Of a stretch of DNA of 64,000 nucleotides, positions 1-20,214 are shown in pieces. This DNA comes from Saccostrea cucullata. Lineage: Eukaryota. The position numbers and the translations under genes were made by a program. Where the stretch lies: contig NW_026924102.1 of NCBI RefSeq assembly GCF_032062105.1, forward strand, positions 124,001 through 188,000, written 5' to 3'. The notes beneath the pieces are model-generated. The model made no database searches. It saw only the letters and a list, made by a program, of their open reading frames with translations, and was not told the DNA's origin. Position 1 is the stretch's first letter. Each line of letters opens with the position of its first letter.

Positions 1-64
1 ACCACAACCATCAAAAATATGAAATATTTTACTGTAATAAAAAAGATTGAGTAAAGTGATTAAC

Positions 65-1472
65 CTTTCAACTAATTCCCCGATTGACACATCGTTCAGG
101 GAATCCCCCAGTTCTTCTGTTTCTCTTCTGCTGACCGTACTTAAAGCAGAGAAAAATAAATATGAATTATACAGGTCATGAATGTCTATGAAGAACAAAT
201 TTAAATACTTAAAAAATACTAACTGAGGTCTCTTCGGCGCATTAGGTGGTACACTGTAAATGAAAGACTATAACGTTAAAATTGAAAATAAGAAGATAAA
301 TGAATAAATACATGTGTATCTTACAAGGAGTATTTCATTAAATAAAATGAAGAGATGAAACTGATGGGATTTCTGTTTATCTATGTCATATATTTCACTG
401 ACCCCAATGAACTAGTATTCTCCAATTCACCATCCCCGTCTCTAAAACGTTTAGAAATAATTGCATGAACAAAATATATAAATATTATATTTAAGGAATG
501 GTAAATAAAACTATTAAAAAAAAATTTTTTAAATACTAACTTTTGTCTTTTGGGTGCATTAGGAGTCGCACTGTAAATGAAAGACTATAACTTTAAAATT
601 ATAAATAAAAAGATCAATGAATAAATAAATGTGTATTTTACAAGTAGTATTAAATTTTATCTCTTTAACTAAATTAAAAATTTTGATAATTAGTACTCAT
701 GGTTTTTTTTAATTTGAAAATGAAAAGATAAATGAATAAATACACGCGTATCGTACAAGGAGTATTAAATTTTATCTATTAATTAATTAAATAAAATGAA
801 GAGTGGAAACTGATGGAATATTTGTTTATCTATGTCATGTATTTCACTGACCCATCTTCTTCACCATCCCCGTTTCTGAAACGTTTAGAAATGAATGTGA
901 ACAAAATATGCTTAAATGTTACATTTAAGGAATGATAAATGAGGAGGGTTAATAAGACTTATTCTACTTACTCTTTACGGGGGGTCCCGATTGGCGTGCT
1001 AATTAATGTGTAGAAAAAAAATGCATAGTAATTAATGGTAAGAAATAGAAAAGAGAAAAAAAAACGAAAGAAAATGAATTCCAGTCTTTTAAAACCAATT
1101 TTCAGTAAAAGATTGAATTAGAGCCAGGCATTACTGACGGTCAATGCAGATGAGGATGATAAATTCATTAATAGATATGATTTTTAAAATTATTATGTTT
1201 CTTAAATACTTGTCAAGCGAAATAAAGTTAAAGAATGAAAATATTTTCTTTTTACCTCGTCCTCTTCCCATAAGACACTTCAAATCTACCAATTAAAAAA
1301 GAAATACAATAGCACAATCACTTACCAAAAATGACATAATTCTCAAGTTTTAAAAATGATGAAAGAGGACTTACGGACAGGGAACATTGTCTACTTTGTC
1401 AATTAGAGCGACCAAGTCCCCGATGATTTCTGTAATTACACCGCAAATACAAACAGGCGTTTTTGATGCCAT
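65..1472 (-). CDS. Uncharacterised multi-microexon gene, 3' end runs off the window. Exons: 1472-1375, 1285-1256, 998-972, 875-852, 570-541, 441-403, 253-224, 139-65
   Basis: All introns are GT..AG (84-281 nt). Internal exons are 30, 27, 24, 30, 39, 30 and 75 nt, all phase 2-2. They join into the stop-free protein MASKTPVCICGVITEIIGDLVALIDKVDNVPCPFEVSYGKRTSTPIGTPRKENGDGEEDGATPNAPKRQKDGDGELENTSSLGVPPNAPKRPHTVSRRETEELGDSLNDVSIGELVE... Confidence 0.8.
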
Positions 1473-1956
1473 GACTGGTAAGATTTCAAGGGAAAGTTTT
1501 CCTCTTTTTATTTGAAAAATGTATCATGTGATATGAGTACCAAATTTGAATAATAAAAACTAAGTCTTATGTACAGTGAATCTAGTGAAAAAGAGAAAAT
1601 GAAAAATTTGTACTGGTCATCCTCCCTGTCAATCAAAGAGGAGCCCAAAAAAGAAGGAAATCCCTGCGTGTGAAATTATACAATTCTGTCAGTCTTAATT
1701 AAAGATGACTCTAAATTAATGAACATACAATAAACAAGACTGAAAAAAAAATGCTAGTCTAGTAACGAAAACATTTTAACAGAGAAATCATCATGTTGTC
1801 ATTTTTACCATTACCATCTGTTCTGAACGGTGATTTATCGTTTTGAAAAATGTGGTCAGACATTTTTATTATGATTAGAAAGTGTTGTAAAGTAAATTTC
1901 CATCAGTGTCATCACTCACTGTGTAATTAAAGATATAAATATGGACAGGGTCATCA

Positions 1957-2289
1957 GTGCACTGGTCAGATTATAGGACATTCCGTTCCCCCAATACCTA
2001 CGGTGACGAGAAGATCAACAGTTCATCCTACTCCCACATTACAACACCCGTCGCTACGGACACTTCAACGAGGGACACGATCCTTAATACCCATGAGAGT
2101 TCAGACAAGGGTATCAGAAATGAGCTTGACTATTTGTTCATAACTATCCTTATACCCTTATTATTTATAATGTGTGTCTGTGTTTTGAAGCTAAAACGTA
2201 GGAAAAAATCTAATCTTGTAAATAATTCAATTGAGATGGAATGTGTTGATGAAGGTGAGACGATATTATACAAAGCCACAGATAAATAA
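1957..2289 (+). CDS. Small single-pass membrane protein (S/T-rich ectodomain, TM helix, basic stop-transfer, acidic tail); true 5' exon/start unresolved
   Basis: TM YLFITILIPLLFIMCVCVL followed by KLKRRKK. The ORF has no early ATG, so it is probably a terminal exon. A possible first exon is near 1793-1829. Confidence 0.6.
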   Translation: MHWSDYRTFRSPNTYGDEKINSSSYSHITTPVATDTSTRDTILNTHESSDKGIRNELDYLFITILIPLLFIMCVCVLKLKRRKKSNLVNNSIEMECVDEGETILYKATDK

Positions 2290-2799: not shown

Positions 2800-2867
<68 letters not shown>

Positions 2868-3075: not shown

Positions 3076-3213
3076 AGGGTAAGTTCATATGATGAATATC
3101 AGTAAAAGTAGTGTGTACGTAACATTTAGTATTGTATGTTTTGATATTTTTTTGTGTGTGTGTGTATATTTGTTTGTTTTTTCTTCTCAGATGACGAAAG
3201 ATCAGTACGTATC

Positions 3214-3386
3214 CAGGGAGGAACGAAGTCACTAAAGTTACAAAAGTTCCAGGAAGGAATGTGTAAATTCATCTTCATAAAAATTTTGTAAACATTGTTC
3301 AGGGAGGAACGAAGTCATTAAAGACACAAAACAAAATTCCAGAAAGGATTGTGTAAATTCATCCTCATTAAAATTTTGTAAACATT
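3214..3386. repeat. Tandem duplication of about 85 bp in the 3'UTR exon
   Basis: CAGGGAGGAACGAAGTCA...AAATTTTGTAAACATT present twice. Confidence 0.9.
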
Positions 3387-3479
3387 TAATTTCTTTTTAT
3401 TTAATAAAGGTATAATGAATGATAAATTGTTAGAACTACGGGTGATATTTATGGATTATATTCAAAACGATGGATATTA

Positions 3480-4710: not shown

Positions 4711-5467
4711 AAAGGTAATCATTGTATATAAAAGAATCTGCAACATTCTACAAACAATGTCATTATTTTCCCTACGGAAAATTTTCCAGAGTCCCGAAAT
4801 GTTTTTTACGCTTGAGCAGTATCACCCAACAGGAATTTGAGAATTGTTGAAATATCCAAAATAAAATAACTGTATATTACTTTTATTGTATATTATGTTT
4901 TAAGTCCTCTGAGGAGACTGACGTGCGTTACTTAAGGAAAAAAAACATCATGTTTCAGTGTGGTTATTGTGAATTAATGTTTAATGATTATGATAGCATG
5001 GCCGATCACGAAAAGGAACACGAAAGGAATATTAACAATACTGCAAGGTAAGAATGACCATTTGTTTACCTTCTTATGCACAATTCAGAAAGATATCGGA
5101 TAAAGAGAGATAACTCCGCTAACTTCAAATATCTGAGGTGAACTCGGGCATTACCTTGTTAACGCTCCTTGTAAAGTCACAACACAGAGACTTAACGTAA
5201 ATGTGAATAACCAAAATCATAGTATCAAGTAATGAAGTTGTGTTATTTCTATCCATCGATGATGGCTAATATATCATTGCAAATATATAGATGTAAATAA
5301 TTGTTTTTTTTCTTCCAATTTTTTTCTCTCGATGATAAATCTGACATTTAAAGAGAAAAAGAAACAGGGATCTAATTAATAAGGTGAAAAAATCATCAAT
5401 GAGTTTACTGTGTCATGTGTTTTGTTGTCAAACAAGTACTTTAAGATATGTATTTGACCCCCCGATT

Positions 5468-6375
5468 TAAATCAAAACGCACGTATGGTGCTCCATGCGA
5501 GATAATTGTCAATAAAACAGAGAGCGACTTCATGTATGGTGGACCGCTTGTGATAAAAATGATTAAAGTTATGGATCAATTGTATGGCGTCACATAATAG
5601 ATAAAATTCACCCCTATCAAAGTATACCATGTATGGTATTCCGTTTGTGATAAAATTCGATGAAAAATTGAAAAAAAGGTAAAATATATGGTAACCTTTT
5701 TGAGTTAAAAAAAAAATCTTTAAAAAGTTTTTTTTATTTACAACAGTTATTCAACCACCCTAAATCTAAATCAAAACACACGTATGGTGTTCCATGCGAG
5801 ATAATTGTCAATAAATCAGAGAGCGACATCATGTATGGTGGACTGCTTGTGATAAAAATGGTTAAAGTTATGGATCAATTGTATGGCGTCACATAATAGA
5901 TAAAATTCACCCCTATCAAAGTATACCATGTATGGTATCCCGTTTGTGATAAAAGTCGATGAAAAATTGAAAAAAGGTAAAATATATGGTAACCCTTTTG
6001 AGTTAAAAAAATCTTTAAAAAGTTTTTTTATTTACAACAGTTATTCAACCCCCCTCAATCTAAATCAAAACACATGTATGGTGTTCCATGTGAGAAAAAT
6101 GTCATTAAAATATAGAGAGCGACTTCATGTATGGAAAATTTACTCAAATCAAAGTAACCCATATACCGTAACCCGTTTTGTGATAAAAGTTAAAAAAAAT
6201 AAAATATACGGTAACTCATTTGAGATGAAATTGAATTTTAAAAAGTTTTTTTTAAATGTTTGATAGTTTAGCAAAATTTAAAAAAAAAAAAAATGAAAAA
6301 TGAGAAAGTTATTTTATAGGATGATTCGTTTTGAGATAAAGAAAAAAATTAAGAGTGGGAATGTATGGTAACAGA
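5468..6375. repeat. Higher-order repeat upstream of pPolB: units of about 299 bp built from monomers of about 50 bp with GTATGG-N12-GATAA
   Basis: GTATGG/ATATGG at 5483, 5534, 5582, 5631, 5686, 5782, 5833, 5881, 5930, 5984, 6076, 6129, 6363; most are followed 12 nt later by GATAA or GTTAA. Confidence 0.85.
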
Positions 6376-6427
6376 TATCAATGAATGAGCAATGTCTTAA
6401 TGTCTGGTGTTTATTTTAAAATATACA

Positions 6428-9400
6428 ATGAATGATTACAGTTCGGGCGTTTGTGAACAAGAACTGTTTCGAGACATCCAAAACATGGACTGGACACCTG
6501 TTACGGGAGACGACCTATTATACCAGGCGTCCACGTCCAGCGGTGCTCATGCAGAGAGCATGGACTTTAAGGACATTGCCGATTCCTCCTTCCACGGCGA
6601 GGAATCCCTGTTGATGGAAGAAGATGGACTCTTTTCGGAAATCACGGATACCTCTTTTCACGGTGAAGATTCTCTCCTTTGCGACATACCAGTGGATCCG
6701 CTGAGCGATTCATTAGCCGGTCAGTACGGTGCTGGACGAAAAGACGATTTCGATATTCGAATCATACGTGAAAAGAAATTGAAAAAGATGGGAGCCGTGG
6801 ACTTGCAGTACGAGTTGACGTTCCACGACGACCTCTTTCGGGAAAAAAAGAAGATGATCGAAGTCAAAAACGTCTTGAAAGACGCCTTCGAAGAGATGCT
6901 CGATCGAGTCAAGAAGGACCTTCGTCGCGGAGATCTCGTCAGGGCAGCCATCCATAATGATCATTTGGACTTGCCCGTGTTCGTCCCCTGTCGACCCATG
7001 GAGGAGATGGACGCAGAGACCATGCTAGAAAGCCTGATGATCGTCCTTAACAGTCACCAGGACCTGCCTTTCGATTCCTCTTGTCGAATCGATATCGGGG
7101 CCATCAAATATCCACGCGGTGGTACGGGAGTAAAGATGTCTTCCGTCGCTAAATCGATTGCCGAGAAGAGAGCCATTATAAAGATACGCAATACCGATAA
7201 CAAGTGTCTCGTCCGCGCTACTCTCGTCTCTTTGGCCCACAGTTGTCAAATTCACATCACTGAGTTTAACAACGTCAAGGCGCGTCATCCGACCCTCACG
7301 ACCGGGGAAATTCTCATTTTTTACCACCAGTGTCCGCTCTGGTATTGCAGGGATCTGCGAAAAAACCACAAAGGAGCCCAAGACAGCCTGACAAATCAGA
7401 TCTGTGAAACGATGAATATCGTCGATGACGGTCCGTTGTCCTACTTGGCCATCCCTCCTCTAGAAGATTTTCTCAACGTGAACCTCTACATCATCAGTGC
7501 GAAGATGGGGAACGCATTCTCTTACATCAGTGCCCATCACGACGAAGAACGAAAGAAACTATTCCTGCTGCACGACGACACGGAGGGGGCCGAACACTTT
7601 TATCCCATCACGACGCTGGCAGGTTTCTTTTGTCGGTCACGGTTCTGCAGTACGTGTTTAAAACCATACGAAAAACCATACGGACATAAATGCAAACACC
7701 ATTGCAATGTCTGCTTTTCCGATCATTGTCCCGTACTACAAAAGAGAGCTTGTCCAGACTGTCATCAGACCTGTCGCTCTGGGGCTTGTTTCATTCGACA
7801 TAAGAATCCCATGGAAGGAGGGACCACACCTTGCGATCTCCGATACAGATGTCCGACCTGCAAGAAGACTTTCTTACGACACGAGTTAAAACCCGAAGAT
7901 CACCGATGCGGTCATTACATCTGCAAGTCCTGCAGGCAATACGTAGATCCCGAACATCTGTGCTACGCCAGGAGACACCCTTCCAAGGAAAACGAAACCA
8001 GTCGACGATTCATTTTTGCCGACATCGAGGCCTCACAAAAGGACGAAATCGTCCAGTGTGAGTGGGGATACGCACCTCGACGCCTCAACGACTGTACCGA
8101 ATGTCGAACAGAGCAAGACCCGTGCCCCTCCTGTCGACTCTGTCAACACTGTCTCAAATCGCACTGCGGAAAATTTAAACATACCGTGGTCTTGGCAGTG
8201 TGTCAGACCGCCTGTGAAAATTGCGAGAACGACGACGTCACATTCGACAGTACGTGCGCTTCTTGTGGAGACCGATGCTCGACCTGTGACAAGAAGGACA
8301 AGAAAACCAAACAGTACCTTTCGCTTCCCTGTCCTGGTCGATGCGGACAGCGAGAGCGCGTCTTCCAGACCTTGTACGATCTCGGGATATGGATCTTTCG
8401 CGAACATCACAAAGGCTTTACCGTCCTGTTTCATAACCTCTCGTACGATGGCCAGTTTCTTCTGCAGTACTTACTGTCGCAGTCCATTCGTCCTTCCTTT
8501 ATCATTTACAGGGGAAGTAAAATTCAAATGTTCAACATCACCGGCCTTCAAATCCGAGTCATCGATTCGTTTAACTTCCTACCGATGGCCTTATCCAAAC
8601 TCCCCAAAGCCTTCCAGCTGGAATCGCTGGCCAAGGGGTACTTTCCTCACTTTTTTACATGCCAGGCCAACCGGAATTATGTGGGACCTTACCCACCTGC
8701 CGAGACTTATGGTCCCAATGCCATGTCTGTGGATGGTAGAAAAGAGTTCTTCAAATGGTACGACGCTAAAGTCACCAGTGGAGACCTCTTTGATTTTCAA
8801 CAAGAAATCCTCAAGTACTGCCGAAGCGACGTTGACATCCTCCGACGTGCCTGTCTCAAGTTCAAGAACCTCCTGCAGGAAGCAACCGGTAAAGAGGGAG
8901 GCCAAACCGTCGATGCGTTCGATTCCTGTACCATCGCGTCTCTCTGCATGGACGTATTTAAATCCAAGTTTTTAATGGAAGACTGGAGATGCCTGGTCCA
9001 AGAGGACGATGAGGAACGTTGGCTGGAAGTCAGGAAGTTTGACGGAGAGGCGATCGTGAATGACGAGGGTCGTTGGATTCCTTGGAATACTCTGAAGCAA
9101 CGGAACGTCGTCATCGTGAAAGAAGAGTTTGTCAAGTCCCCCATTGCTCGTCCTCCACCCAAGGGATATCCGTCCCGCATCCAGTACAGCCGCAAGTCCA
9201 TCTGCTGGTTAGAGTTACTGAGACATCGCGCTCAAACTTCGGGACGCATTTTGGACATTCAGCATGCACTCACGGGACGTGGAGAATACCATCTGCCCGG
9301 TACCCGATATTCCCTAGACGGATACGTTTCCCCCAGTGCCGAACACCCCCACGGCGTGGCTTACGAGTTCCACGGCTGTCTGTACCACGGCTGTCCCGTC

Positions 9401-10972
9401 TGTTACAAAGATCGAGACGCCCTACTGATCCCGAATTCGGAGCAGACGGCTTCGGAATTGTTTTCACTGACGCAGCACAAGGAACTTCAACTCCGTCAAC
9501 GGGGACTCAAAGTGGTCACCCTCTGGGAACACGAGTTTGACGCCATGTTAAAGACGGACGAGGAGGCCAAAGCGTTCGTCGACCGTTTAGAAGTGGTGGA
9601 CCGTCTCGATCCTCGGGACAGTCTGATGGGTGGGCGTACCAACGGATGCGTGCTCTACAAGCGAGCCACCAAGGACACGAAAATCAAATACGTGGACTTT
9701 ACCTCCCTGTACCCCTTTGTCAACAAGACGTGCCGTTACCCCGTCGGACACCCAGAGATCGTCACCCGGGATTTCGCCGACCTTTCGACCTATTTCGGAT
9801 TAGTCAAAGTCAAAGTCCTACCGCCCCGCGGTCTCTTTCATCCGGTCTTGGGTTACCGTACGGGAGGAAAATTGACCTTTCCTCTCTGTCGAACCTGCGT
9901 CGAACGGCAGCAACAGACCCCCTGTGTCTGCAACGAGGACCAAAGGGCTTTCACGGGAACGTATTGCACGCCAGAACTCTCAAAAGCCATCGAAAAAGGG
10001 TACGCGGTCTTGAAAATCTACGAGGTGTACCACTGGACGGAAACGACTCAGTACGACACGGCCACGAAGACCGGAGGCCTCTTTTCCTCCTACATCAACA
10101 TGTTTCTGAAAATAAAACAAGAGGCCAGTGGGCGACCGGCGTGGGTCAAGACCGAGTCGGATCTCGAAAGTTACATCAGGATGTACGAGGCCAAGGAAGG
10201 CATTCGCCTAGACCCCGACAAAATCCAAGTCAATGCGGGTCTAAGGAGTTTAGCCAAACTGTTATTGAATAGTTTTTGGGGGAAATTTGGTCAGCGCACG
10301 AATCTGACCAAGACCCAATTCCTTCACGACAGTCAGGCCCACTTCCTCTTCGGTCAAATGACCGATCCCACCGTACAGATTGTCGACTTTAACATCGTGG
10401 ATGACGAAAACCTCATGCTGTCCACCAAACGCGTTTCGGAAGAGATGTGTGCTCCGGGTCACACCAACGTGTTCCTGGCCTCTTTTACCACCTGCTGGGC
10501 CCGGCTCAAACTGTACGACTTACTAGATCAATTACAGACTCGGGTCCTTTATTGGGATACGGATTCCGTCATCTACGTGTCCAAGGCAGGGGAGTGGGAA
10601 CCTCCCACCGGAGACTACCTCGGAGAGCTCACCGACGAACTGGACGAAGGAGATTGGATCACGGAATTTGTCTGTAACGGTCCAAAAAACTACGCGTACC
10701 GGACGCATCAGGGAAAGCAGGTGTGCAAAGTGAAAGGCTTTTCTCTCAACTACGCCAACTCACAGATTCTCAACCTGGAAAGTATGAGAGACGCTATGTT
10801 TAATCGCGACGATCCGACGATGGGCATGTATCACACCACCAACGCCAAAAAGATCTGCCGGGAAAAGATTCATTCTGAGCTCTACAGTCAAGAAGAACTC
10901 AAACAATATTCGGCTGTCTACACTAAGAGAGTCGTGCAGAGTGACCTGACCACCCTTCCTTACGGATATTAA
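6428..10972 (+). CDS. Protein-primed family B DNA polymerase (pPolB) with N-terminal OTU-like domain, Zn-fingers, 3'-5' exonuclease and inserted VSR-like nuclease
   Basis: Motifs: DNKCLVRA...HFYPI (OTU-like); FADIE, HNLSYDG, YCRSDV (Exo I-III); LDGY...YEFHGCLYHGC (VSR-like); VDFTSLYP, KLLLNSFWGKFGQ, YWDTDS (Pol A-C). First ATG at 6428. Confidence 0.97.
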   Translation: MNDYSSGVCEQELFRDIQNMDWTPVTGDDLLYQASTSSGAHAESMDFKDIADSSFHGEESLLMEEDGLFSEITDTSFHGEDSLLCDIPVDPLSDSLAGQYGAGRKDDFDIRIIREKKLKKMGAVDLQYELTFHDDLFREKKKMIEVKNVLKDAFEEMLDRVKKDLRRGDLVRAAIHNDHLDLPVFVPCRPMEEMDAETMLESLMIVLNSHQDLPFDSSCRIDIGAIKYPRGGTGVKMSSVAKSIAEKRAIIKIRNTDNKCLVRATLVSLAHSCQIHITEFNNVKARHPTLTTGEILIFYHQCPLWYCRDLRKNHKGAQDSLTNQICETMNIVDDGPLSYLAIPPLEDFLNVNLYIISAKMGNAFSYISAHHDEERKKLFLLHDDTEGAEHFYPITTLAGFFCRSRFCSTCLKPYEKPYGHKCKHHCNVCFSDHCPVLQKRACPDCHQTCRSGACFIRHKNPMEGGTTPCDLRYRCPTCKKTFLRHELKPEDHRCGHYICKSCRQYVDPEHLCYARRHPSKENETSRRFIFADIEASQKDEIVQCEWGYAPRRLNDCTECRTEQDPCPSCRLCQHCLKSHCGKFKHTVVLAVCQTACENCENDDVTFDSTCASCGDRCSTCDKKDKKTKQYLSLPCPGRCGQRERVFQTLYDLGIWIFREHHKGFTVLFHNLSYDGQFLLQYLLSQSIRPSFIIYRGSKIQMFNITGLQIRVIDSFNFLPMALSKLPKAFQLESLAKGYFPHFFTCQANRNYVGPYPPAETYGPNAMSVDGRKEFFKWYDAKVTSGDLFDFQQEILKYCRSDVDILRRACLKFKNLLQEATGKEGGQTVDAFDSCTIASLCMDVFKSKFLMEDWRCLVQEDDEERWLEVRKFDGEAIVNDEGRWIPWNTLKQRNVVIVKEEFVKSPIARPPPKGYPSRIQYSRKSICWLELLRHRAQTSGRILDIQHALTGRGEYHLPGTRYSLDGYVSPSAEHPHGVAYEFHGCLYHGCPVCYKDRDALLIPNSEQTASELFSLTQHKELQLRQRGLKVVTLWEHEFDAMLKTDEEAKAFVDRLEVVDRLDPRDSLMGGRTNGCVLYKRATKDTKIKYVDFTSLYPFVNKTCRYPVGHPEIVTRDFADLSTYFGLVKVKVLPPRGLFHPVLGYRTGGKLTFPLCRTCVERQQQTPCVCNEDQRAFTGTYCTPELSKAIEKGYAVLKIYEVYHWTETTQYDTATKTGGLFSSYINMFLKIKQEASGRPAWVKTESDLESYIRMYEAKEGIRLDPDKIQVNAGLRSLAKLLLNSFWGKFGQRTNLTKTQFLHDSQAHFLFGQMTDPTVQIVDFNIVDDENLMLSTKRVSEEMCAPGHTNVFLASFTTCWARLKLYDLLDQLQTRVLYWDTDSVIYVSKAGEWEPPTGDYLGELTDELDEGDWITEFVCNGPKNYAYRTHQGKQVCKVKGFSLNYANSQILNLESMRDAMFNRDDPTMGMYHTTNAKKICREKIHSELYSQEELKQYSAVYTKRVVQSDLTTLPYGY

Positions 10973-11004
10973 CAACAAGACATTTTTTTTGTATGAAATC
11001 ATTT

Positions 11005-11064
11005 TTTATTGGCTCATGGTACATGTTTTTGTAATTCTTGTACAGAAATATAAATGTCAATAAA
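11005..11064. terminator. Convergent polyadenylation signals for pPolB (+) and the minus-strand structural block
   Basis: AATAAA at 11059-11064 on + and at 11010-11005 on -. Confidence 0.6.
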
Positions 11065-11196
11065 AGTTCCAAAAATCTCGAGTCTTTCTTCTTCTTTGTG
11101 AGAGTTGTGCATATGCTCAGAAGGTACTTCCGGTCGTATTCACTCGGACGGTCTGTTGCCTGAAAGATGATCACGTATGTTTTCGTATAAAATGTT

Positions 11197-11445
11197 TCAA
11201 AACTTGATCCAAGTCTTGTTCTTCTTTGGGAGAGTCGTGCGCATGCCCGGTGGGGACTTCCTCTTCACGGATCCGTCGTAAATCAGTCCCGAACCCCTCT
11301 GGCGATCCGTCACCGAGGGTTCGATCTGAGGGTCGGAAGGAGTCTCGGTGTTCGTTTCTTGGTCTCGTACCTCTTGACGATCATTCTGACTTTGTTTCAT
11401 CCGATCGAAGGTCGTCTTTTTCACGAGAACGTATTCCTCTGCCAT
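11197..11445 (-). CDS. Small Polinton ORF (82 aa), positionally PZ-like; contains a QRGSG motif
   Basis: ATG in good context, overlaps the upstream ORF, N-terminus MAEEYVLVKK and C-terminus WIKF resemble PZ-type termini as recalled. Confidence 0.6.
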   Translation of the reverse strand: MAEEYVLVKKTTFDRMKQSQNDRQEVRDQETNTETPSDPQIEPSVTDRQRGSGLIYDGSVKRKSPPGMRTTLPKKNKTWIKF

Positions 11446-11740
11446 CTTTGAAATGAGGTTTCAGAATCAGGGGTATGGCCTCTGCGTGTTTCCTCAATAA
11501 TTTCTTGATGGCGGTGTTGTCCACTGCTCGGTCACTGAGAGACTGAAGTAATGTTTTATGAACCTTGAGTTTTGTCTTGTAATAACCGGACACGGGGGGA
11601 TGTCCCGAGTACAGATTGAGAGCGATTTCTCGAAAAGCATTCAACTGCTCGTCCGACGCCAGGTTGACCAGTTCTTTCCTCTGTACGGGATCCGCTTCGT
11701 ACAGGAAACGGAGAAAAGTTGCGTGACGTCTAGGTCTCAT
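11381..11740 (-). CDS. Conserved Polinton PW-like (putative core) protein, 119 aa
   Basis: Pattern L..L...QRKELV..A...QL.AF.E.ALN.Y.G..P......L..HK..L..L. Start MRPRR at 11740 is preceded by a TATA-like element and Inr. Confidence 0.75.
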   Translation of the reverse strand: MRPRRHATFLRFLYEADPVQRKELVNLASDEQLNAFREIALNLYSGHPPVSGYYKTKLKVHKTLLQSLSDRAVDNTAIKKLLRKHAEAIPLILKPHFKDGRGIRSREKDDLRSDETKSE

Positions 11741-11778
11741 GACGAACAATGACGTCTCGAATGGGTCGGCGGTCGTAT

Positions 11779-12417
11779 TTATTGGGGCAGGTACACGACC
11801 GTTTCCCCTTCTTCCGGTAAGACGTTCGTGCGCAGGCGTCGATCTTCGGGACAGTGATTGGTCAGATCCACCAGAATGTATCCGTAAGGACGGCGGACGG
11901 CCTTGGCGTAGGCGTCCATCCAAAATTTAGAACGACCCGTAAACACCTGACTTCCGAAGGTGATGATCTGGCGATTGTCTCTCACGTTCTTGAATAGAAC
12001 CACGTGTTGACAGTTCAACAGGATGCTCTTGGCGTAGACTCCGGGCGGGTAGAGGTTCTGAGACAAGAGAAATGCCGTCACGTTGCCGTGAGACACCATG
12101 GTCTGAAACAGGTGCAGGGCATCGGGGCTCTTGGTCGCCAGGTGAATCATGTCGTCCAAGACCACTACCGTGTGTGGCGAGTCCAGACACCAATCTCGGA
12201 TCTCTTCTCGGGTAGGCAATCCTCGGTAGGTGGTGAAATCGGGGAGAGTCGCTTGCATGTCGTCCACCACGGGTTGGTCTTCCAGATAACAGTACACGAT
12301 CTTACTAGGAGAGACTTCGAACGTGTCGGGACTTTTCAACAGGTTCCACACCCAGTGCGTCTTGCCGCACATGGTTCCCCCCACGACGGCAAACGAGGTC
12401 GGAGTCTTAAATTTCAT
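11779..12417 (-). CDS. A32/FtsK-like genome packaging ATPase
   Basis: Walker A GGTMCGKT, Walker B VVVLDD, LSQNLY and PYGYILVD motifs. Confidence 0.95.
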   Translation of the reverse strand: MKFKTPTSFAVVGGTMCGKTHWVWNLLKSPDTFEVSPSKIVYCYLEDQPVVDDMQATLPDFTTYRGLPTREEIRDWCLDSPHTVVVLDDMIHLATKSPDALHLFQTMVSHGNVTAFLLSQNLYPPGVYAKSILLNCQHVVLFKNVRDNRQIITFGSQVFTGRSKFWMDAYAKAVRRPYGYILVDLTNHCPEDRRLRTNVLPEEGETVVYLPQ

Positions 12418-12550
12418 CGTGACGTTCTCTTGGTAAAGGCTGTCAGAGACTAACGTCTCTCTAGAGAAAACACCTCGTTAAATAATCACAACACCTTTTT
12501 TTTGCGTGCACTTTTTTTATTAGACACGAAAATCAATGACATGAACCACA

Positions 12551-12610
12551 TTTTCCCGGGCCGCCGCCGCGCGCGCGAACCCGAGGGATCCGGAAACTGG
12601 TTTCCGGAAA
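12551..12610. promoter_or_regulatory. GC-rich upstream element of the ATPase gene with palindrome TCCGGAAAC-TG-GTTTCCGGA
   Basis: GC island in an AT-rich spacer; inverted repeat at 12589-12608 with ETS-like CCGGAA cores; E2F-like TTCGCGC on the minus strand. Confidence 0.5.
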
Positions 12611-12736
12611 TCTTTGATGATGGACAATGCGAATACCAATCCATAAAATAAAAGATACAATGTGCATTCTTAGGATCATACATACATACAGAATAAACAT
12701 TTTTTTTTATATTTAAGAGTCTTCAAGCATATAATG

Positions 12737-13183
12737 TCAAAGAAGGCGATCTCCCTTTAAAATAACGTCACGTACGAGGGACTCTGACGTCGTACGAATC
12801 ACATCGGCCATGGATAGTCCTTTCACTCGACAATACAGGTAAAATAAGGCATGAAGTCCGCAACTGGTGGCAGCATCCGGCTGTACTTGTACGTTGTTGT
12901 AGAGGCAGAACAAGGCGTTGCGATCGATAAAGTCTCTCAGACGACCGTCGTACTCTCCCGGCAATCTTCCGAAACTGTCGAAAAATTCGCATTGGTCGGC
13001 ACTGGCGAACCAGTAAGCGACCCAGTGCGTCCCCTTCTTGTCGATGGGATCCGTGTTGCAGACGAAGGCCGAGGGAAACTGTCGAACTCGCCCGGGTAGC
13101 GTATCGGAAGCAAACACCCCCCGAAAATGAAGTTTCAACCCCGGCAACGTCTCTACTCGTTGAAGTAACTGTAACGTGTCCAT
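12737..13183 (-). CDS. Adenain-like (C5) cysteine maturation protease
   Basis: GVFASD, NTD, GTHWVA (His), EFFDSFG (Asp), VQ...SCG (Gln/Cys). Confidence 0.95.
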   Translation of the reverse strand: MDTLQLLQRVETLPGLKLHFRGVFASDTLPGRVRQFPSAFVCNTDPIDKKGTHWVAYWFASADQCEFFDSFGRLPGEYDGRLRDFIDRNALFCLYNNVQVQPDAATSCGLHALFYLYCRVKGLSMADVIRTTSESLVRDVILKGDRLL

Positions 13184-13185
13184 GT

Positions 13186-14499
13186 TTACATCTGTCGGAT
13201 CTCTCGAGCTTGGTCGACGAGGAGCAGTCCTGGATATTCGCAGAAGGCCAGTGCGCTCACGGTCTCCGTGGTGGGCGAGGCAAATCGAGCGTATACTCCG
13301 ACGTTTGCCTGATGTACCAGGTTTATATACCCCTCACCCAGGTCGTTGGGGTCGAGGTCAAAGGCGTAAATGGCGTAGCCTTTAGAAAACTGGTCGCGGT
13401 CGATGATCAGGCCGTCGTCCTTGTACCATTTTTCGGAAGCTTGATACAGGTTGCAGAGCGCCGTGACGTAATTTCGATCGTCGCCAAAGTCCATCTTCAT
13501 GGGACGGACGGGGGTGGGTTCTCCGTTGACGGTCACGACGATTTCGGACAGATTCAGGTGTTGAAAGTTGTAAGGATTGCCTTCGTAGCTTCCGTTCACG
13601 GCCGACTGTTTCACAAAGACCACGTACATCTTGGAAGGTCTTCTTCCGTTCCACACGTCGTCCCAGTAGACTTCACTGGTCTTGTCCGAGATGGTCATCA
13701 TCTTGACGTCGGTCTTGAGATAATTGTAACGGGCCGGCGATTTGGTGATGGCGTTGGCATGGTTCAACAGGACGGCACTGTCTAATCGGATCTTGCACGC
13801 CTTGAAGACGGCATCGAGGATGGTGACTTTGTAACTGGGCGAAGCCTCCGCGCTCATCAGCACAAACTCGTTCCTCGAACGAAAGAGTCTCAGCTGTAAG
13901 TCGACCCCGTTGATCAGGTACTTGTCCAGGTAGAAACAGTCGACGTACAGGGGACCTTCCAGATCGAAAGTTCTGGACATTTGCGTGAACACGTACCGTC
14001 CTCGGAGTCCCTGGTTGCGTCCTGTGGCGGCATCTGCGTCATCCAAGACTTCCTTGTCGGGGTAATACAGCTGAGACTGTAGTTGCGAGTTGCTGGCGGC
14101 GGGTGAGTTGGATAAGAGGACTTTGAGGTAGGCTTTCCAAGGATAATTGTTGGCGTTCTGCGAGACGCATTTTCCGTTCATGTAGACGTCGATCTGCGAA
14201 AACAAAGACTGCAACGGCAAGTTGACGATACCCGTCTTTTCGGAGGCCGCCAGTGCCGTGCCGTCCGCTTTAGTGATCTTGGCTTTCAAGTAGAGTCGGC
14301 TCCTTCTCAAGTCGATGTATTCGTTTCCCCCTCCCGGAATGGCAAATTCGAGAGGAGCGGTGTCTCCGTCAAAGGAGGAGACGGGTCGAATCTCCGAAAA
14401 ATAAATCTTTTGAACAGCCACCTGATTGGGAGGATCGCTAAAGAGAGCCAGTTCGGAGGGTTCTGCCACGGACGTGTTGATCTCGCTCAAAAATGCCAT
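13186..14499 (-). CDS. Double jelly-roll major capsid protein (PY/hexon-like)
   Basis: 437 aa; SELALF.DPP.Q, PLEF.IPG...[28 protein letters not shown] motifs typical of Polinton MCP. Confidence 0.93.
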
Positions 14500-14501
14500 G
14501 A

Positions 14502-14957
14502 TTAAAAGATGGTTTTCTTTGGAAGACGGGATTTTCTCTGCGTGGTTTTTGTGGTTTTGGGTTTCCTTTTCTTTAGGCTTCTGGCTCGTTTACGGACTTT
14601 CGTCTTCTGGCTCCGGACACGTCCTTTCCCTTTGGAGGTCGATGTGCGACTGACAGATTTCTTCTTCTTTTTTCTTTTTATAGTTCTCTTCAGAGGTATG
14701 TGAGGCTCGTCGTTACGCATGGTTTCTTTCAGATCGGACAGGGCTCGCTCTTGCTCGGCGGCTACGGGTGTCACCAGCTGTACGTTCTGTTGGGGAATGC
14801 GAGATTTCAAGGGAAGCATGTAAGCTCTTCTGCGGTTTAGGATCCCACCTCCTCTCTGGCTGTTGCGTCGTAGGGTAGGAATGAAATTTTCGCCATCTTC
14901 CGTGTGGCGAAATTGTTCCCATAAGGCCGGATTCGAAATGTAAGTGGGTCCAGACAT
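14502..14957 (-). CDS. Basic core/DNA-condensing protein (adenovirus pVII/pX-like by analogy)
   Basis: QRGGG motif, [11 protein letters not shown] motif, K/R-rich C-terminal half, located between penton and MCP. Confidence 0.75.
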
Positions 14958-14963
14958 GTTGGA

Positions 14964-15371
14964 TCAGAGACGCCGAAACACGAGTGTCAACGTCGACTCT
15001 CCGACCAAGAATGAAACGTCGCCGTCGTTTTTGTCTCTTATATACACGTGAACGTCCCGCAGGTCATTGATGCGTAACGGTATGCGATAGGGTTGCAGAA
15101 AGATGACGTTGCGGTCGCTTTCCAGCACGATGCGCCTCAGGAGGGGTTTCTGATGTTCCCCGACGATGCTATCGTCACAGACGGAACAGTAGACGAAGAT
15201 TTCCTTGTCGGACGTCGGTTTGACGTTCGAGTTCCAAAATTCGGTCAGTTCCACCGTCCAATCCCCCGTCAAGGGTAAAGGACGGGGTAACCGCACTCTA
15301 AAGTCGTCAGGTCGATTGTTGTGGTGGACGGAGGGACTGTCCGTAGACTTGAGAACCATTCGCATCGACAT
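14964..15371 (-). CDS. Minor capsid protein/penton (PX), short single jelly-roll
   Basis: L.S.DS...H.NN.P.DF.V.LP.PL.L.G.W.V.L.E, FVYCSVC..SIVG....PLLR, I.I.D..G..V.F..G. Confidence 0.88.
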   Translation of the reverse strand: MSMRMVLKSTDSPSVHHNNRPDDFRVRLPRPLPLTGDWTVELTEFWNSNVKPTSDKEIFVYCSVCDDSIVGEHQKPLLRRIVLESDRNVIFLQPYRIPLRINDLRDVHVYIRDKNDGDVSFLVGESTLTLVFRRL

Positions 15372-15401
15372 CTTCTCTAGTACTGATGAATTGAGTCGGC
15401 A

Positions 15402-16526
15402 TCACGTCTCTTTTATGTCGGACTGAGGAATCCAGCTGTCGAATTTTTTGGGCCAGCCCAGCCATCTGACCAGAACCTCTTCTTTCCCGCGAACTTTGCG
15501 TTTCCGCAAGATCTTGTCTATTCGCCAGACGGTCTCATCGTCTTTCGACACTTTCTGAAGTTCGCTGGCGTAAAACGTTCCTCGAATTGGGTCGTCCATC
15601 ATGTCCTTCAATTTGTAGATGGGTATGTCTTGAGACACGAAACGATCACTCACGATGAAGATTTCTTCCGTGTACGTCTGGTCGTAATCGCGTTGAAACG
15701 CCCGTTTCAGATGCGTGATTCGAACTTGATCACCCTTTTTAAATCTGAAGGGTTTGCGTTTTTTCAGAGATTTCTTCCCTCGGGGTATGCGTGCGTCTTT
15801 CTGTCGACGTGCTAAATAAGCATCTAATCGCACTTCTTCTTCGTTCTCTTGGGTCACGGAAGACGGCGTCCGTCCGTTCAGCGAGCGATTGGGCGTATCG
15901 TTGATGGAATGCACCACGTCTTGAAGAATGTTTAGGTACTTGTATTTCTGAAGGTGGGTGAAGTAACGATACAGTCTCTTCTTTAAAGTCTGTATGTATC
16001 GCTCCGCAAAATTGGCTTTGGTCTCGTTCAGGGCGTAAAATATCTTGATGTTCTGCTCTCTCAGGTATTTTTGAAGGTATCGATTGTAAAATTCCGAGCC
16101 CTTGTCGGTGCGGATGGCTCTGGGTCGTCTAGGGCCACTCAGTACGTCTTTGAACGCATCGATGACGGACTTGGATTTCCGGTCTTTCAAGGGTCGAACC
16201 CACAGAAAACGAGAAAACACGTCCACGATCACCAGCAGAAATTTGATGCCGTCGTTGTACTCGGACAAGTTCTGAACATCGGCCAGATCGGCTTCCCATT
16301 GATAGTCGATCCCTTGAACCACGACTCGTCTCCGCTTGAAACCACGTCGCCTCAGTTTCTTTTGCAACGAGTAAGCATCTTGGTTTTGTAAGAATTTTTT
16401 GATTTTTCTCAAACCAATATTATATTTGCCTTCTCGTTTCACCACATCATATAACTTGGAAGGTCCGGCAAACGATCCGGCATGCCGAGGATCGTACCAG
16501 ATTTTTTTCAGGTACTCTTCCATCAT
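15402..16526 (-). CDS. Retroviral-like DDE integrase (rve) with C-terminal chromodomain
   Basis: EADLAD, RTDKGSEF, AERYI triad; WRIDKIL...LVRWLGWPKKFDSWIP chromodomain. The ORF track start at 16553 is TTG; the first ATG is 16526. Confidence 0.96.
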   Translation of the reverse strand: MMEEYLKKIWYDPRHAGSFAGPSKLYDVVKREGKYNIGLRKIKKFLQNQDAYSLQKKLRRRGFKRRRVVVQGIDYQWEADLADVQNLSEYNDGIKFLLVIVDVFSRFLWVRPLKDRKSKSVIDAFKDVLSGPRRPRAIRTDKGSEFYNRYLQKYLREQNIKIFYALNETKANFAERYIQTLKKRLYRYFTHLQKYKYLNILQDVVHSINDTPNRSLNGRTPSSVTQENEEEVRLDAYLARRQKDARIPRGKKSLKKRKPFRFKKGDQVRITHLKRAFQRDYDQTYTEEIFIVSDRFVSQDIPIYKLKDMMDDPIRGTFYASELQKVSKDDETVWRIDKILRKRKVRGKEEVLVRWLGWPKKFDSWIPQSDIKET

Positions 16527-16840
16527 CCGATCACTAGCACTGTTCGAATGCAAATGACTTGAACCCGTTTCACACCTCCATTTTTATATTTATAAAAAGA
16601 CCTCTCCTAGTCATAAAAAAATAAACAACACACATTTCAACAAACCAAATTTTATTCATCAGATCAAATACAAACAATAGTCTCCTCTCACTACTTCGGT
16701 CGACCTTGTCCATACGGATCGGAGCACCTGACGTGTCCTAGATCGGTCGGTTCGGATTCTCGAAGGAGACGTGGGTGAATGGTCTCATGATTTTTTTTTG
16801 GTCTTTGAAAAAAAAGCCACAGTTCATAGTTTTCGTTCAC

Positions 16841-17308
16841 TCATCGTACTTTTCCATCGGTCACCATGTTAGCGAAGACACAATTCTCGGACCAGCGGAG
16901 ATGTTCTCTGTAGGCATCGTCGAAGGGTTCCCAATTCTTCAGAGTCCAGCCACAGGAGAAGCAAGTGACTTTGTCTCCGATCTCGGTGTAAATGAACCCA
17001 GATCGTGCTAGATCCGTCTTGTTGGGACCTTTGAGAAACTTGGGCCATTCTTTAAAGCTGGCATAGCGTTCGGCAAAGTTGACGTATTCCGGGTACTTCC
17101 AAGATTTTCGTACGACAGGCGGAGGAATGTTCTCGACTGGCAGTCGTACAAACTCGTTTGATGTCCCCCGTACCCCCGACGACTTGTAAGGGCTGACCAG
17201 AACGAATCGGGTGTCGGGGTCTCTCTTTCGAGCAGTGGTTTGGGTCAAGAGGTTGGGTGCACTGTCCGTCTCCACGACATTAGGCATGCAATCCAACGTC
17301 GAAGTCAT
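16841..17308 (-). CDS. Single-BIR inhibitor-of-apoptosis-like protein (no RING)
   Basis: R.ASF..WP, LARSGF.Y...GDKVTCFSC...L..W...DD...EH..W...C. Confidence 0.93.
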
Positions 17309-17390
17309 GTTATCGTGACGATGTGTTCACTAGTAATGAAAGCCGAGAATGAGAGACGAGACATTAAAGGGTCTTGATCACGTGCTTGAC

Positions 17391-17422
17391 GGGAAAAACC
17401 TGTGACGTCATAGGTTTTTCCC
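17391..17422. promoter_or_regulatory. 32-bp palindrome: Rel/Dorsal-like kB site, CRE, kB site
   Basis: GGGAAAAACC-TG-TGACGTCA-TA-GGTTTTTCCC, one mismatch from perfect dyad, in the divergent promoter between BIR and the 17728 ORF. Confidence 0.7.
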
Positions 17423-17727
17423 CGATGTGATGGACCATGAAGGTACTCGGGAGAATTTCATTGTGACACAAAGGGGGGAAAGAACAATGGGAGTATTATC
17501 TCTATTGTTTGAGCAAGGGGGTAACAACAATGACGGATCATCACGGATGAGTCCCTTCGTGACCCTTAGACGACCTTTCCCACGATTCAATGGGAGTCAA
17601 ACACAATGACTCTATTCTTGGAACAATAAAGGGGACGCTGTGACTGCGCATAACGTCCTAGGTGGCAATGTTAAAAAGCAGAGGTTTCCATCAGAAAGAT
17701 CATACCTCCTCTAGCATACGGACCAGA

Positions 17728-18183
17728 ATGATTTCCAACAAGAAATATCAACTCGAAATGATAGATGATTCAGGCTTTCATCTATTCATGAAAAAGGGTG
17801 CAGCTGTCAAACAACTGATTGACCACCATATTGCCAACGACATGAGTACAGAATCCTGTGATTTCTGTAAAAAACAGCACGTTCTCAGAAGTAAGCTCGT
17901 CCATGAGAAACACTGTCTTGTCCGATTAGCTTTGGAAGCGCAATCGGACGTTACAAAAATGACCACATTCTGTTTGCGAGCACAGGATATCCAAGACGAA
18001 TCGCACGGAAAGAACCTGGTGTTTTTCTGGGATATCATGATGGTCACTATGGCCGACCGTATTCCCTTCGAGGACATGAGAGCTGCTTATTACGAATCCC
18101 TTTTTGAAAGTTACGACCGCGGAGAAATGGAATTCCTGTGGCCAGACGGAGTCTGGCGTAAAGAAGACCCATGTTACACTTAA
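17728..18183 (+). CDS. Hypothetical protein with CxxC...H...C putative Zn-binding motif
   Basis: Clean ORF with CDFCKKQH...HEKHC; TATA-like TTAAAAAG upstream; AATAAA at 18249. Confidence 0.65.
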   Translation: MISNKKYQLEMIDDSGFHLFMKKGAAVKQLIDHHIANDMSTESCDFCKKQHVLRSKLVHEKHCLVRLALEAQSDVTKMTTFCLRAQDIQDESHGKNLVFFWDIMMVTMADRIPFEDMRAAYYESLFESYDRGEMEFLWPDGVWRKEDPCYT

Positions 18184-18343
18184 CTTTTAATCAATGAAAA
18201 AGAACAGTTTTTCATGAAACCATGTTTTTATTCTGGTTACATGTCAACAATAAATTTTTTAACCTCTTATTTTTCGTTGTCTTTTTTTTAAACATTAGAT
18301 TCAACACAACATGGATTAAAAAAAAAAACAAAACTTTTGCTCA

Positions 18344-18856
18344 TCAAGTACGAGGTACGACGATAATGACATTTTTACCGGATCTCTTTACAAAGTTTTT
18401 GATCAGTCCGAAATAAACACTCCAATCTCCCCCGGCAAGTCCACATCCTATCTTGAATGGAAAGGCTATGGTTTGAAAATGAGTATCTGTCAGTTCTTGC
18501 AGACACTGTTGAAACCATACAACTCTGTTTTCTTTCGTGTCCACAAATGGCGGGATCTTTCGTTTACAGTTGTTTTGACAACGACCGAAATCCCATTGCG
18601 ACAGGAAACAGACGATTGCAGGACACTCTGGTGTCGTAAAAATGCGTACAGTACCTGGCCTCCCCCTCGTTTCCAAAGTGGCCAAGTTACGCTTTGCCAC
18701 GGGTTGTCTTTGTTGGTAAATATCGGCCCAAGGATACTTGAGGGCGATTTGACGTGAAAGGCCATGGGATGTCACCGTTAAACAATTTACCTGGTGACAG
18801 ATGGCGTCCACCTCGCTGATCGTTAAGAGATTTCCGTAGACTTGTCGTATACTCAT
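18344..18856 (-). CDS. Macro domain protein (Poa1p/TARG1-like ADP-ribose processing)
   Basis: GNLL....DAICHQVNC....HGLS.QI..KYP and IAFP.KIGCGLAGGDW motifs. Confidence 0.9.
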   Translation of the reverse strand: MSIRQVYGNLLTISEVDAICHQVNCLTVTSHGLSRQIALKYPWADIYQQRQPVAKRNLATLETRGRPGTVRIFTTPECPAIVCFLSQWDFGRCQNNCKRKIPPFVDTKENRVVWFQQCLQELTDTHFQTIAFPFKIGCGLAGGDWSVYFGLIKNFVKRSGKNVIIVVPRT

Positions 18857-19224
18857 TGTCTCTATGGGAGATCAGACGACTGTGAACGATTCGATTGGAA
18901 ACAGACCTTTTAATCAAAAACTTAACTCTCTTGTTTACCACGTGACCAAATAACAACACACTGATTTGAAATACAATAGACTTTTATTTACGGAATAATG
19001 ACAAGATTTAAACATATACGAGAATACGGTGACAAGATTCAAACATATATAAAAAAAATACGGTATCATGACAAGATTCATATTGGAAAAATGTCAAACT
19101 CGTTCATAGTCTTTCTTCTCACAGCGAGGTTCATTGTTTCACCGAAAATCAAAGGTTCTCATGTCCACGTCTTTCGTTTTCCCACCGTTTTTTGACTTGT
19201 TCACCATTTTCCCGTCTTCCGATT

Positions 19225-19734
19225 TCACCAATTTTCGTAATCGTTTGGATTACAAGTCGCACATCGCAACATTCCGACTTGATTCAGGTGGTCGTCTCGA
19301 TCGTAACAGAGCACCGTGGTCTCCAGTTCCGGTAGATTTTTTTCGATGTTTTCCCAGTTCGACTTTAAAGTGCGATATTCCTCCGGTCTCAAACAAAGTC
19401 CTTTCTTTGTCGGCACGATCTCACTTTGCTTTGGTGGCCTCCAGTATTGCCGGATGTCCACGCACGGGTTCCATTCCTTTACGGTTACATACACGTTATA
19501 ACCCAGGTGCCAATCCCCTTCTTCGTGCTTTTTCATCGTTTCTTCGATGCTCTCCCATTTGTCTGACAACGATTTTATCTGATGCAATTTCAGACTGATT
19601 CCTTTTTTGGTAGGTTTCATGGTGCGATCTCCCATTTCCCATTCTCGTATGTCGAGTCTGGGTTCATTTTGCCATGTCTGTACTCTGGCATATCTACCGT
19701 TTTCTAGGGCTACAGATAATCGTGGATCTGACAT
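19225..19734 (-). CDS. Tandem PC4/Sub1 ssDNA-binding domain protein
   Basis: Two copies of Y..V..W.....DIR.W/Y...PTKKG..L; C-terminal C...H......C..C. ATG 19734 lies downstream of TATA 19793 and Inr 19763. Confidence 0.9.
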   Translation of the reverse strand: MSDPRLSVALENGRYARVQTWQNEPRLDIREWEMGDRTMKPTKKGISLKLHQIKSLSDKWESIEETMKKHEEGDWHLGYNVYVTVKEWNPCVDIRQYWRPPKQSEIVPTKKGLCLRPEEYRTLKSNWENIEKNLPELETTVLCYDRDDHLNQVGMLRCATCNPNDYENW

Positions 19735-19859
19735 GTTGTCGCTATCACGTTTGTTTCTCAAATGACGAAAAAGTACAACCCATCTTCTATATAAACGTCT
19801 CCCCAATGACACGTCATAGAAAACCCAAGACATCCCACGTGGTCTGTTCAGGTCACTAC

Positions 19860-20214
19860 TCCATTGTTGTCACTCACGGTAATGTCTCCTTTAGGTCAAC
19901 AAGAGGTCATCCATGACCTTACCCCATTGTTCTCTGACACCGTCATGTCTCCTCCGGGTCACGGTGAAGTCGTCCATAACCTAGCTTCCTTGTTCTTCCC
20001 CCCTCGCCTTACAATAGAGGGGGATAATCCGGATCATCCTCCCATTGTCCTCCCCCTTGTTCTCCCCAACAATAAATCCCCTTGTTTACCCCCTCCATTG
20101 TCCCCCCTTACAATAGAGGGGGGATAATCCGGATCATCCTCCCATTGTTCTCCCCATTGTTCTCCCTAACAATAGACCCATTGTTTACCCCCCCTATATG
20201 TCGGTTATACTACT
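19860..20214. repeat. Right terminal inverted repeat region with subterminal duplications of about 63 bp and 99 bp; candidate 6-bp TSD GAGGAG at 20215-20220
   Basis: CCTTACAATAGAGGGGGATAATCCGGATCATCCTCCCATTG twice; multiple CCATTGT; terminal ACTACT. Confidence 0.8.

Follow-up and report, generated by a model that had tools for sequence, protein, structure and literature searches.

A coding-complete Polinton/Maverick element in the oyster Saccostrea cucullata with a polymerase likely spliced to an upstream zinc-finger exon

Introduction

To date, several groups of Polinton/Maverick elements have been described. The adintoviruses (Orthopolintovirales; Starrett et al. 2021, PMC8502044) carry a protein-primed DNA polymerase B (pPolB) of the pfam03175 (Alpha) class, an rve integrase, an ATPase, an adenain, a hexon and a penton, and IAP-type accessory genes have been reported in them. 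Vertebrate Mavericks have sizes of 12.7-24.6 kb, and 134 coding-complete ones were found (Barreat and Katzourakis 2021, PMC8097293); the intact ones are without introns, the word being used there for elements whose conserved open reading frames (ORFs) are all intronless and which have terminal inverted repeats (TIRs) and a target-site duplication. Nematode Mavericks combine intronless core genes with intron-bearing cargo next to the left TIR (Widen et al., 10.1101/2022.07.12.499685), and mobilisation of polintons in insect cell lines has been cited (PMC11296320). Here, we analyze an element of this kind in a window of 64,000 nucleotides from the oyster Saccostrea cucullata (RefSeq assembly GCF_032062105.1, contig NW_026924102.1, positions 124,001 to 188,000 of the forward strand), whose pPolB very likely begins in a separate zinc-finger exon; coordinates below are those of the window.

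The element shares the above-mentioned gene set with the adintoviruses. With vertebrate Mavericks, it has in common the INT-mCP-PW-MCP-PRO and ATPase-PM-PZ modules, the AGTAGT/ACTACT end and the presence of flanking accessory regions, and with nematode Mavericks a compositionally distinct region toward one end, here with predicted introns. Since coding-complete Mavericks are common (134 in vertebrates, PMC8097293) and bivalves are rich in Mavericks (10.1101/2025.04.19.649669), the element by itself is ordinary.

Identity and Right End of the Element

The window contains a virus-like, coding-complete Polinton/Maverick of known kind with 13 unbroken reading frames. In the ORF scan of the window, all 13 ORFs (6428-19833) were free of internal stops, and catalytic motifs are present in pPolB, the ATPase, the protease, the integrase and a BIR protein, which agrees with an initial annotation of this DNA that had listed 13 ORFs free of stops and frameshifts with catalytic residues kept. 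The same annotation had called the terminus canonical, and this is what we found: the terminal (AGT)2/(ACT)2 motif of Polintons/Mavericks is present at the right end only, as ACTACT at 20209-20214. Within the window the terminal 21-mer is unique; it was matched in 0 of 100 shuffles and had 0 matches in IMG/VR. Immediately outside, GAGGAG at 20215-20220 is a candidate target-site duplication, of which only the right-hand side is visible.

19834..20214, strand not assigned: right terminal region; 100-bp x1.9 repeat, seven CCATTGT motifs, terminal ACTACT

The seven CCATTGT copies in these 381 nt (shuffle mean 0.11, maximum 3 in 500) are partly due to the 100-bp repeat. Two further copies were observed, one on the opposite strand in the spacer that separates the BIR gene from the divergent 171-aa gene (17484) and one 260 nt upstream of the zinc-finger exon (4689). 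The motif resembles a SOX/HMG site.

A Zinc-Finger Exon Ahead of the Polymerase

The pPolB gene very likely has an upstream C2H2 exon and an intron of 1,394 nt, with the predicted structure given below, and the core is probably not intronless as it was initially thought to be.

4950..5047, plus strand: C2H2 zinc-finger exon, predicted first coding exon of pPolB; ends AG/GTAAGA, a phase-2 donor
5048..6441, plus strand: predicted pPolB intron, 1,394 nt; GC 0.296; 299-bp x2.3 tandem repeat at 5468-6153
6428..10972, plus strand: pPolB; 1514-aa ORF, main exon from 6442; PF03175 E 8.4e-49

The acceptor (TACAG, phase 2) lies 14 nt inside the polymerase ORF, and its phase equals that of the donor at 5047. 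The claim for the exon is carried by homology and not by the finger pattern. Five of the eight NCBI-named pPolB models compared (nine such models are listed) span the junction, and four of these five, belonging to two families, have an upstream leader joined there. The start of XP_022311286.1 (P0010) is identical to the window exon at 10 of 14 positions (71%, E 8e-5), and three models of one family (P0051, P0052 and P0055) have a finger at the start with the same C-x2-C-x12-H-x3-H spacing, P0051 being identical at 9 of 24 positions (E 0.002). Single-ORF counterparts from Logan/ENA (P0001 and P0006) diverge from the leader-bearing models exactly at the junction. The join of leader to polymerase is already implicit in the RefSeq oyster models.

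Metagenome loci (80 L-numbered loci, 81 for blastn and tblastx with the terminal DNA and the arm, the AT-rich DNA upstream of the polymerase ORF at 1-6427) were also used for comparison. An in-frame triple C2H2 array is fused to the polymerase without an intron in 5 of the 29 distant loci that have upstream DNA. In these loci (L020-L024) the array stands at the start of the pPolB ORF; two of them (L021 and L023) have in addition a divergent single-finger ORF on the opposite strand. A strict splice scan returned no exon pairs, and a looser scan with generic weights failed to pick up the finger exon.

Given the predicted leader exon at 4950-5047, the element therefore reaches at least 4950 and is 15.3 kb or more in length (4950-20214). 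In all, the best explanation of the locus, which we regard as quite probable, is an unbroken Polinton with a canonical right end, in whose polymerase message a C2H2 exon from the AT-rich arm is likely joined to the GC-rich main exon. In a search of the literature, no report was found that describes a Polinton polymerase with a zinc-finger leader added by splicing; supplements, Repbase and subscription papers lay outside this search, and the gene maps of PMC8502044 may show such a leader.

The Polymerase and a Proposed Mode of Processing

Along the pPolB ORF, the order of motifs is an acidic leader, Q-x-G-x-G at 99, Cys260/His390, a Cys-rich region, ExoI-III, a VSR-type motif at 979 and Pol A/B/C. 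The Cys260/His390 pair is invariant in the aligned polymerases, and the OTU label rests on this pair. Both the OTU and the VSR labels are candidate assignments, made in part after published descriptions. Full-length relatives have 1491-1568 aa, a size matched by the window pPolB. Residues 400-640 (7625-8347) hold 35 of the 66 cysteines, on both sides of the ExoI motif, and many of them are invariant in relatives.

In polymerases of this kind, the N-terminal terminal-protein domain primes replication and the vOTU domain likely releases it (PMC11161782). By analogy with the family, the linear genome would be copied by the polymerase via protein priming and inserted by the integrase, and the ATPase, protease, hexon and penton would assemble a particle. 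The initial suggestion of possible virion competence is in line with the gene content and the predicted folds, as it would be for any complete Maverick. The spliced protein is predicted to run from the finger through the acidic leader, Q-x-G-x-G, terminal protein, OTU, Cys-rich region, exonuclease and VSR-type insert to the polymerase. Residues Q99, G101 and G103 are invariant in 6/6 aligned polymerases, Q-x-G-x-G follows the fingers in 4/5 of the fused relatives, and the motif recurs in the proteins at the PW and PZ positions. Because Q-x-G-x-G resembles the adenain cleavage site, the element's protease likely cuts off the finger and the acidic leader (approximately 130 residues) at this invariant motif, ahead of the terminal-protein region. 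Until cleavage, the leader might tether the precursor to DNA or act as a small regulator, a role that we offer as a tentative guess.

Core Genes and Predicted Proteins

The remaining 12 ORFs are listed below.

11197..11445, minus strand: PZ-position protein, 82 aa (named by position); Q-x-G-x-G at 49; 46% to L062
11381..11740, minus strand: PM-position protein, 119 aa (named by position); tblastn matches in 7/80 loci
11779..12417, minus strand: packaging ATPase, 212 aa; Walker A and B present; Pox_A32 weak, E 0.009
12737..13183, minus strand: adenain-type cysteine protease, 148 aa; PF00770 E 2.8e-6; His/Asp/Gln/Cys present
13186..14499, minus strand: double jelly-roll major capsid protein (MCP), 437 aa; from a structure model and Foldseek
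14502..14957, minus strand: PW-position basic protein, 151 aa (named by position); Q-x-G-G-G at 34; 33-34% to L015/L016
14964..15371, minus strand: single jelly-roll penton (minor capsid protein), 135 aa; from a structure model
15402..16526, minus strand: rve integrase with C-terminal chromodomain; PF00665 E 1.1e-10; D-D-E present
16841..17308, minus strand: single-BIR (IAP-type) protein, 155 aa; PF00653 E 5e-21
17668..18183, plus strand: stop-free 171-aa ORF, no family assigned
18344..18856, minus strand: macro-domain-like ORF, 170 aa; PF01661 weak, E 0.051, below cut-off
19225..19833, minus strand: tandem PC4 (ssDNA-binding type) protein, 202 aa; PF02229 E 6e-25; also in L015, L016 and L071

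Pfam matches above the cut-off were obtained for pPolB, adenain, the rve integrase and its chromodomain, BIR and PC4, and weak ones for the ATPase, a jelly roll and the macro domain. Matches to the ATPase and the protease were found in polymerase-bearing loci. The block of eight genes from the integrase to the PZ-like gene recurs in 2 of the 80 metagenome loci (L015 and L016) with the same order, orientation and comparable lengths, which argues that the window genes of this block have not been shortened by early stops. The PZ-position counterparts in these two loci have 89-92 aa; the 82-aa gene itself is apparently not long enough to encode the gasdermin-like body that has been described in the PZ gene class. 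For the 171-aa ORF, Atlas leads under 0.9 and a sub-threshold FemAB match were both rejected. Queries of IMG/VR with MCP and the polymerase gave no match, an alignment of MCP gave one 28% relative that had no polymerase match, and no relatives were found in a first metagenome scan or in GTDB.

The MCP model (pLDDT 78.7) matched Sputnik (E 1.6e-14) and the mavirus MCP (E 2.8e-14) in Foldseek. The penton model (pLDDT 96.2) aligned with PBCV-1 6ncl_a6 over 130 residues (Z 13.5, rmsd 2.6) and with the mavirus penton over 125 (Z 11.5, rmsd 2.7), the best non-viral row having Z 6.4, and the penton also matches an adintovirus protein (E 2.3e-10). It has 1,117 relatives at E <= 0.001, and many of the 150 matches listed are of 125-155 aa. 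Because so many relatives are of like size, the penton, as modelled, is a naturally minimal, bare jelly roll without an insertion domain; truncation was considered and rejected in view of the jelly-roll fold and the family of similar-sized proteins. Some penton relatives are annotated in bacterial assemblies named 'Solemya velum gill symbiont' (P0084 cluster, contigs of 1-2 kb), which are probably host-clam DNA.

Age of the Insertion

The element was likely inserted recently in the oyster genome. No stop or frameshift was observed over 11,181 scored sites, where 4.8% of single changes are nonsense, and this bounds neutral divergence at <=0.56%, or at 0.18-0.33% with assumed indel rates, on the assumption of no selection after insertion. 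The youth proposed in the initial annotation is thus supported, but only indirectly. In a search of sequencing runs, 6 of 24 rows, from three studies, hold part of the query (best share 0.17), and such small shares are no sign for or against presence, habitat or expression. A wider scenario, speculative and rather doubtful at present, is that mollusc Polintons are nuclear viruses with a spliced early region, in which the intron-rich left arm inside the TIRs encodes lineage-specific membrane proteins and the first polymerase exon, and the leader is a protease-released regulator; the present copy would then have been inserted recently and be polymorphic, its family still spreading among oyster species.

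The Left Arm and Alternative Explanations

Three small genes are predicted in the distal arm (1-4900):

224..1472, minus strand: predicted micro-exon gene, running off the left window edge; AG/GT-bounded GC islands, partly duplicated exon units
1472-1375, 1285-1256, 998-972, 875-852, 570-541, 441-403 and 253-224, minus strand: candidate exons of the micro-exon gene
1939..2289, plus strand: predicted small single-pass membrane protein; Ser/Thr-rich stretch, TM (transmembrane) segment, basic tail; hydropathy 2.86 over 19 aa
2661..3075, plus strand: predicted spliced membrane-protein gene; exons 2661-2796 (TM segment) and 2952-3075; (TC)30 in the intron

The micro-exon scan was restricted to lengths divisible by three, and the symmetry of the exons is thus not unbiased. 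We lean towards the view that 1-4900 belongs to the element as an intron-rich accessory region on its left side, in which case the element would exceed 20.2 kb in length; the term 'fast-evolving accessory region', used in the initial annotation, is plausible for it. On balance, membership of the arm in the element is favoured by the density of its small genes, by the absence of flank satellites and by what lies upstream of the polymerase in two metagenome loci. One of them (L015), which has the same gene order, contains AT-rich DNA upstream, in which a frame coding for a TM segment and duplicated units resembling exons are present. The other (L019, 4047-9147) has a possible left end (AGTAGTAGT), with AGTAGT 5.1 kb upstream of the polymerase, as well as candidates for an acidic exon of 927 nt and for a repeat-filled intron of 351 nt, with matching phases.

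Several observations weigh against this view. The left end lies outside the window or has been lost, because the terminal 21-mer has no second copy and the right end has no partner among long inverted repeats; no left terminal repeat was found within the 64 kb. The length of more than 20 kb given in the initial annotation accordingly cannot be kept as a finding, only 4950-20214 being tied to the element. No homologs of the genes predicted in 1-4900 were found in protein searches of arm peptides, and the arm and terminal DNA had no match among the 81 loci by blastn or tblastx. The arm bears no sequence likeness to the upstream stretches of L015 and L019; L015 is without an identified left end, and the terminus of L019 is a single 6-mer among six in that locus. 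The arm also contains a microsatellite, (TC)30, and is not separable from the nearest host flank in composition (GC 0.304 vs. 0.328, CpG observed/expected ratio 0.85 vs. 0.94).

These observations allow for a possible, if unlikely, reading in which the element has been cut off on the left between 1 and approximately 4900. The micro-exon gene and the two genes for membrane proteins would then belong to the host, and the copy would be unable to replicate from two ends despite its whole ORFs. The missing left TIR, the host-like GC and microsatellite, and the lack of arm homologs in the 81 loci and in protein searches would all fit such a truncation. However, the three candidate genes are short and closely spaced, whereas the right flank is sparse, none of the flank satellites occurs in the arm, and in both L015 and L019 several kb of similarly built, AT-richer DNA lie upstream.

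The sharp compositional split noted in the initial annotation is real with regard to a step in GC, which rises from 0.23 in the 40-nt bin at 6401 to 0.47 in that at 6441, but its reading as the border of a captured region is not supported, the step at 6441/6442 being the polymerase's own predicted 3′ splice site. For this reason, the step is likely an intron/exon edge rather than the border of grafted foreign DNA. The core, which is 84% coding, has a GC of 0.483 (0.498 in the coding part), the arm one of 0.304 and the right flank one of 0.33-0.36. Eleven candidate arm exons sum to 902 nt (14% of the arm) with a GC of 0.437, the remainder of the arm having 0.282, and several core spacers are also AT-rich (0.24-0.39). 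Since the arm is 14% candidate exon and the core 84% coding, the split between them mostly reflects coding density. It is improbable that the element has acquired the arm as cargo from its host in the manner of nematode Mavericks, although intron-bearing cargo lies by the left TIR there (10.1101/2022.07.12.499685) and the arm is host-like in GC: the 1.5 kb adjoining the step are taken up by the predicted leader exon and intron of the polymerase itself, searches with arm peptides gave no cellular homolog, and the nematode cargo is high in GC and placed by the integrase.

The splicing of the polymerase has its own counter-evidence. The C2H2 pattern by itself is not significant (12 of 200 shuffles), the RefSeq models are predictions themselves, and one Pinctada model (P0005) reaches the junction and is annotated without a finger. 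No in-frame finger was found in 24 of the 29 distant loci, three of which (L027, L045 and L066) have out-of-frame upstream fingers. An unspliced protein of 1514 aa could begin at the in-frame ATG that precedes the main exon by 14 nt (6428), and P0001 and P0002 also have Met there. We give little credence to the resulting alternative, namely that the polymerase is unspliced and starts at this ATG, that the finger frame either belongs to another small gene or is not used, and that the RefSeq joins are prediction artefacts, even though Maverick core genes have been described as intronless (PMC8097293, 10.1101/2022.07.12.499685). Two oyster families, approximately 60-75% identical to the window polymerase, have a homologous leader joined at the same residue, the first four codons of the ORF are AT-rich and poorly conserved, with GC jumping right after the acceptor, and in-frame fusions of finger and polymerase occur in 5 of the 29 relatives. 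Finally, it is very improbable that misassembly has attached a free or contaminating viral genome to host DNA. A scaffold of 232 kb would allow for this, but the join falls exactly at the canonical terminal motif, and close relatives in Crassostrea lie on chromosome-scale contigs of 49-82 Mb.

The Host Flank and Repeats

In the right flank, which the initial annotation had described as littered with host transposable elements, 8,296 of 43,786 nt lie in 11 tandem arrays (hand-picked from the TRF table), and a reverse-transcriptase fragment is present. The accompanying statement that no host transposable element has inserted is not confirmed. In the TRF table, the only tandem array inside 6428-20214 is the 100-bp subterminal repeat; the arm has (TC)30 and repeats with 90-bp and 299-bp units, none of which matches the right flank, although no library of transposable elements was searched.

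Several features of the flank were observed in passing. Two similar-looking host open frames with hydrophobic segments (36218-36943 and 42511-43287), 6 kb apart and without a Pfam match, are probably a tandem duplicate. Two arrays of a 166-167-bp satellite (37144-38460 and 49331-51389) stand in opposite orientation with short repeats at their ends. At 53489-53843, an 8/22/30-bp repeat is followed by a reverse-complement-like counterpart, suggesting a fold-back element.

Comparison with Known Systems

Close relatives are found among oyster elements. MCP is identical to three Crassostrea virginica proteins at 399/435 to 407/437 positions (92-93%), and pPolB is 62-77% identical to its relatives (oyster, pearl-oyster and others). 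In C. virginica RefSeq, XP_022311285.1 ('F54H12.2-like') corresponds to MCP, and XP_022311286.1 and XP_022308336.2 to pPolB, with 63-75% identity and a homologous N-terminal leader; this is a different element, and its proteins are annotated there as uncharacterised. Horizontal transfer between oyster species, considered because a host GPCR in the window flank has no relative at 90% in the collection searched, is not claimed, as conservation of the capsid can explain the MCP identity.

Compared to adintoviruses as described in PMC8502044, the element differs in a polymerase likely spliced to a C2H2 exon, a PZ-position protein of only 82 aa and a penton that is a bare 135-aa jelly roll. Among the criteria for Alpha-class adintovirus PolB, pfam03175 is present and a putative OTU domain is seen only as the invariant Cys260/His390 pair. 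Unlike the vertebrate arrangement given in PMC8097293, ATPase-PM-PZ lies on the capsid strand, opposite pPolB. The predicted 1,394-nt pPolB intron also sets the element apart from Mavericks called intact in that report, where all ORFs are intronless; the absence of introns is an operational label of that report and not part of the definition of the Polinton/Maverick family. Nematode cargo, according to 10.1101/2022.07.12.499685, is recognisable, high in GC and located by the integrase, whereas the window arm is low in GC, lies upstream of pPolB, contains a predicted polymerase exon and is without recognised cargo.

The spliced leader matters more than the element that carries it. As core Maverick genes are described as intronless, ORF-based annotation clips the N-terminus of such a polymerase and may place borders of elements at the GC step. 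The prediction comes down to one precise junction, 5047/6442, which is open to check by existing oyster RNA data.

With regard to the polymerase itself, a mollusc pPolB2 with a VSR insertion has been described (Jeong et al., 10.1101/2023.08.22.554363), to which the VSR-type motif at 979 is a likeness by motif only, and the TP-vOTU-EXO-PALM layout (Krupovic et al. 2024, PMC11161782) is shared in the Cys260/His390 pair and the order of motifs. A zinc-finger or acidic leader ahead of the terminal protein was looked for in both reports, and the term 'zinc finger' has 0 occurrences in their main texts. A finger and an acidic leader before the terminal protein, found with or without an intron across relatives, would thus add a domain to the TP-vOTU-EXO-PALM layout.

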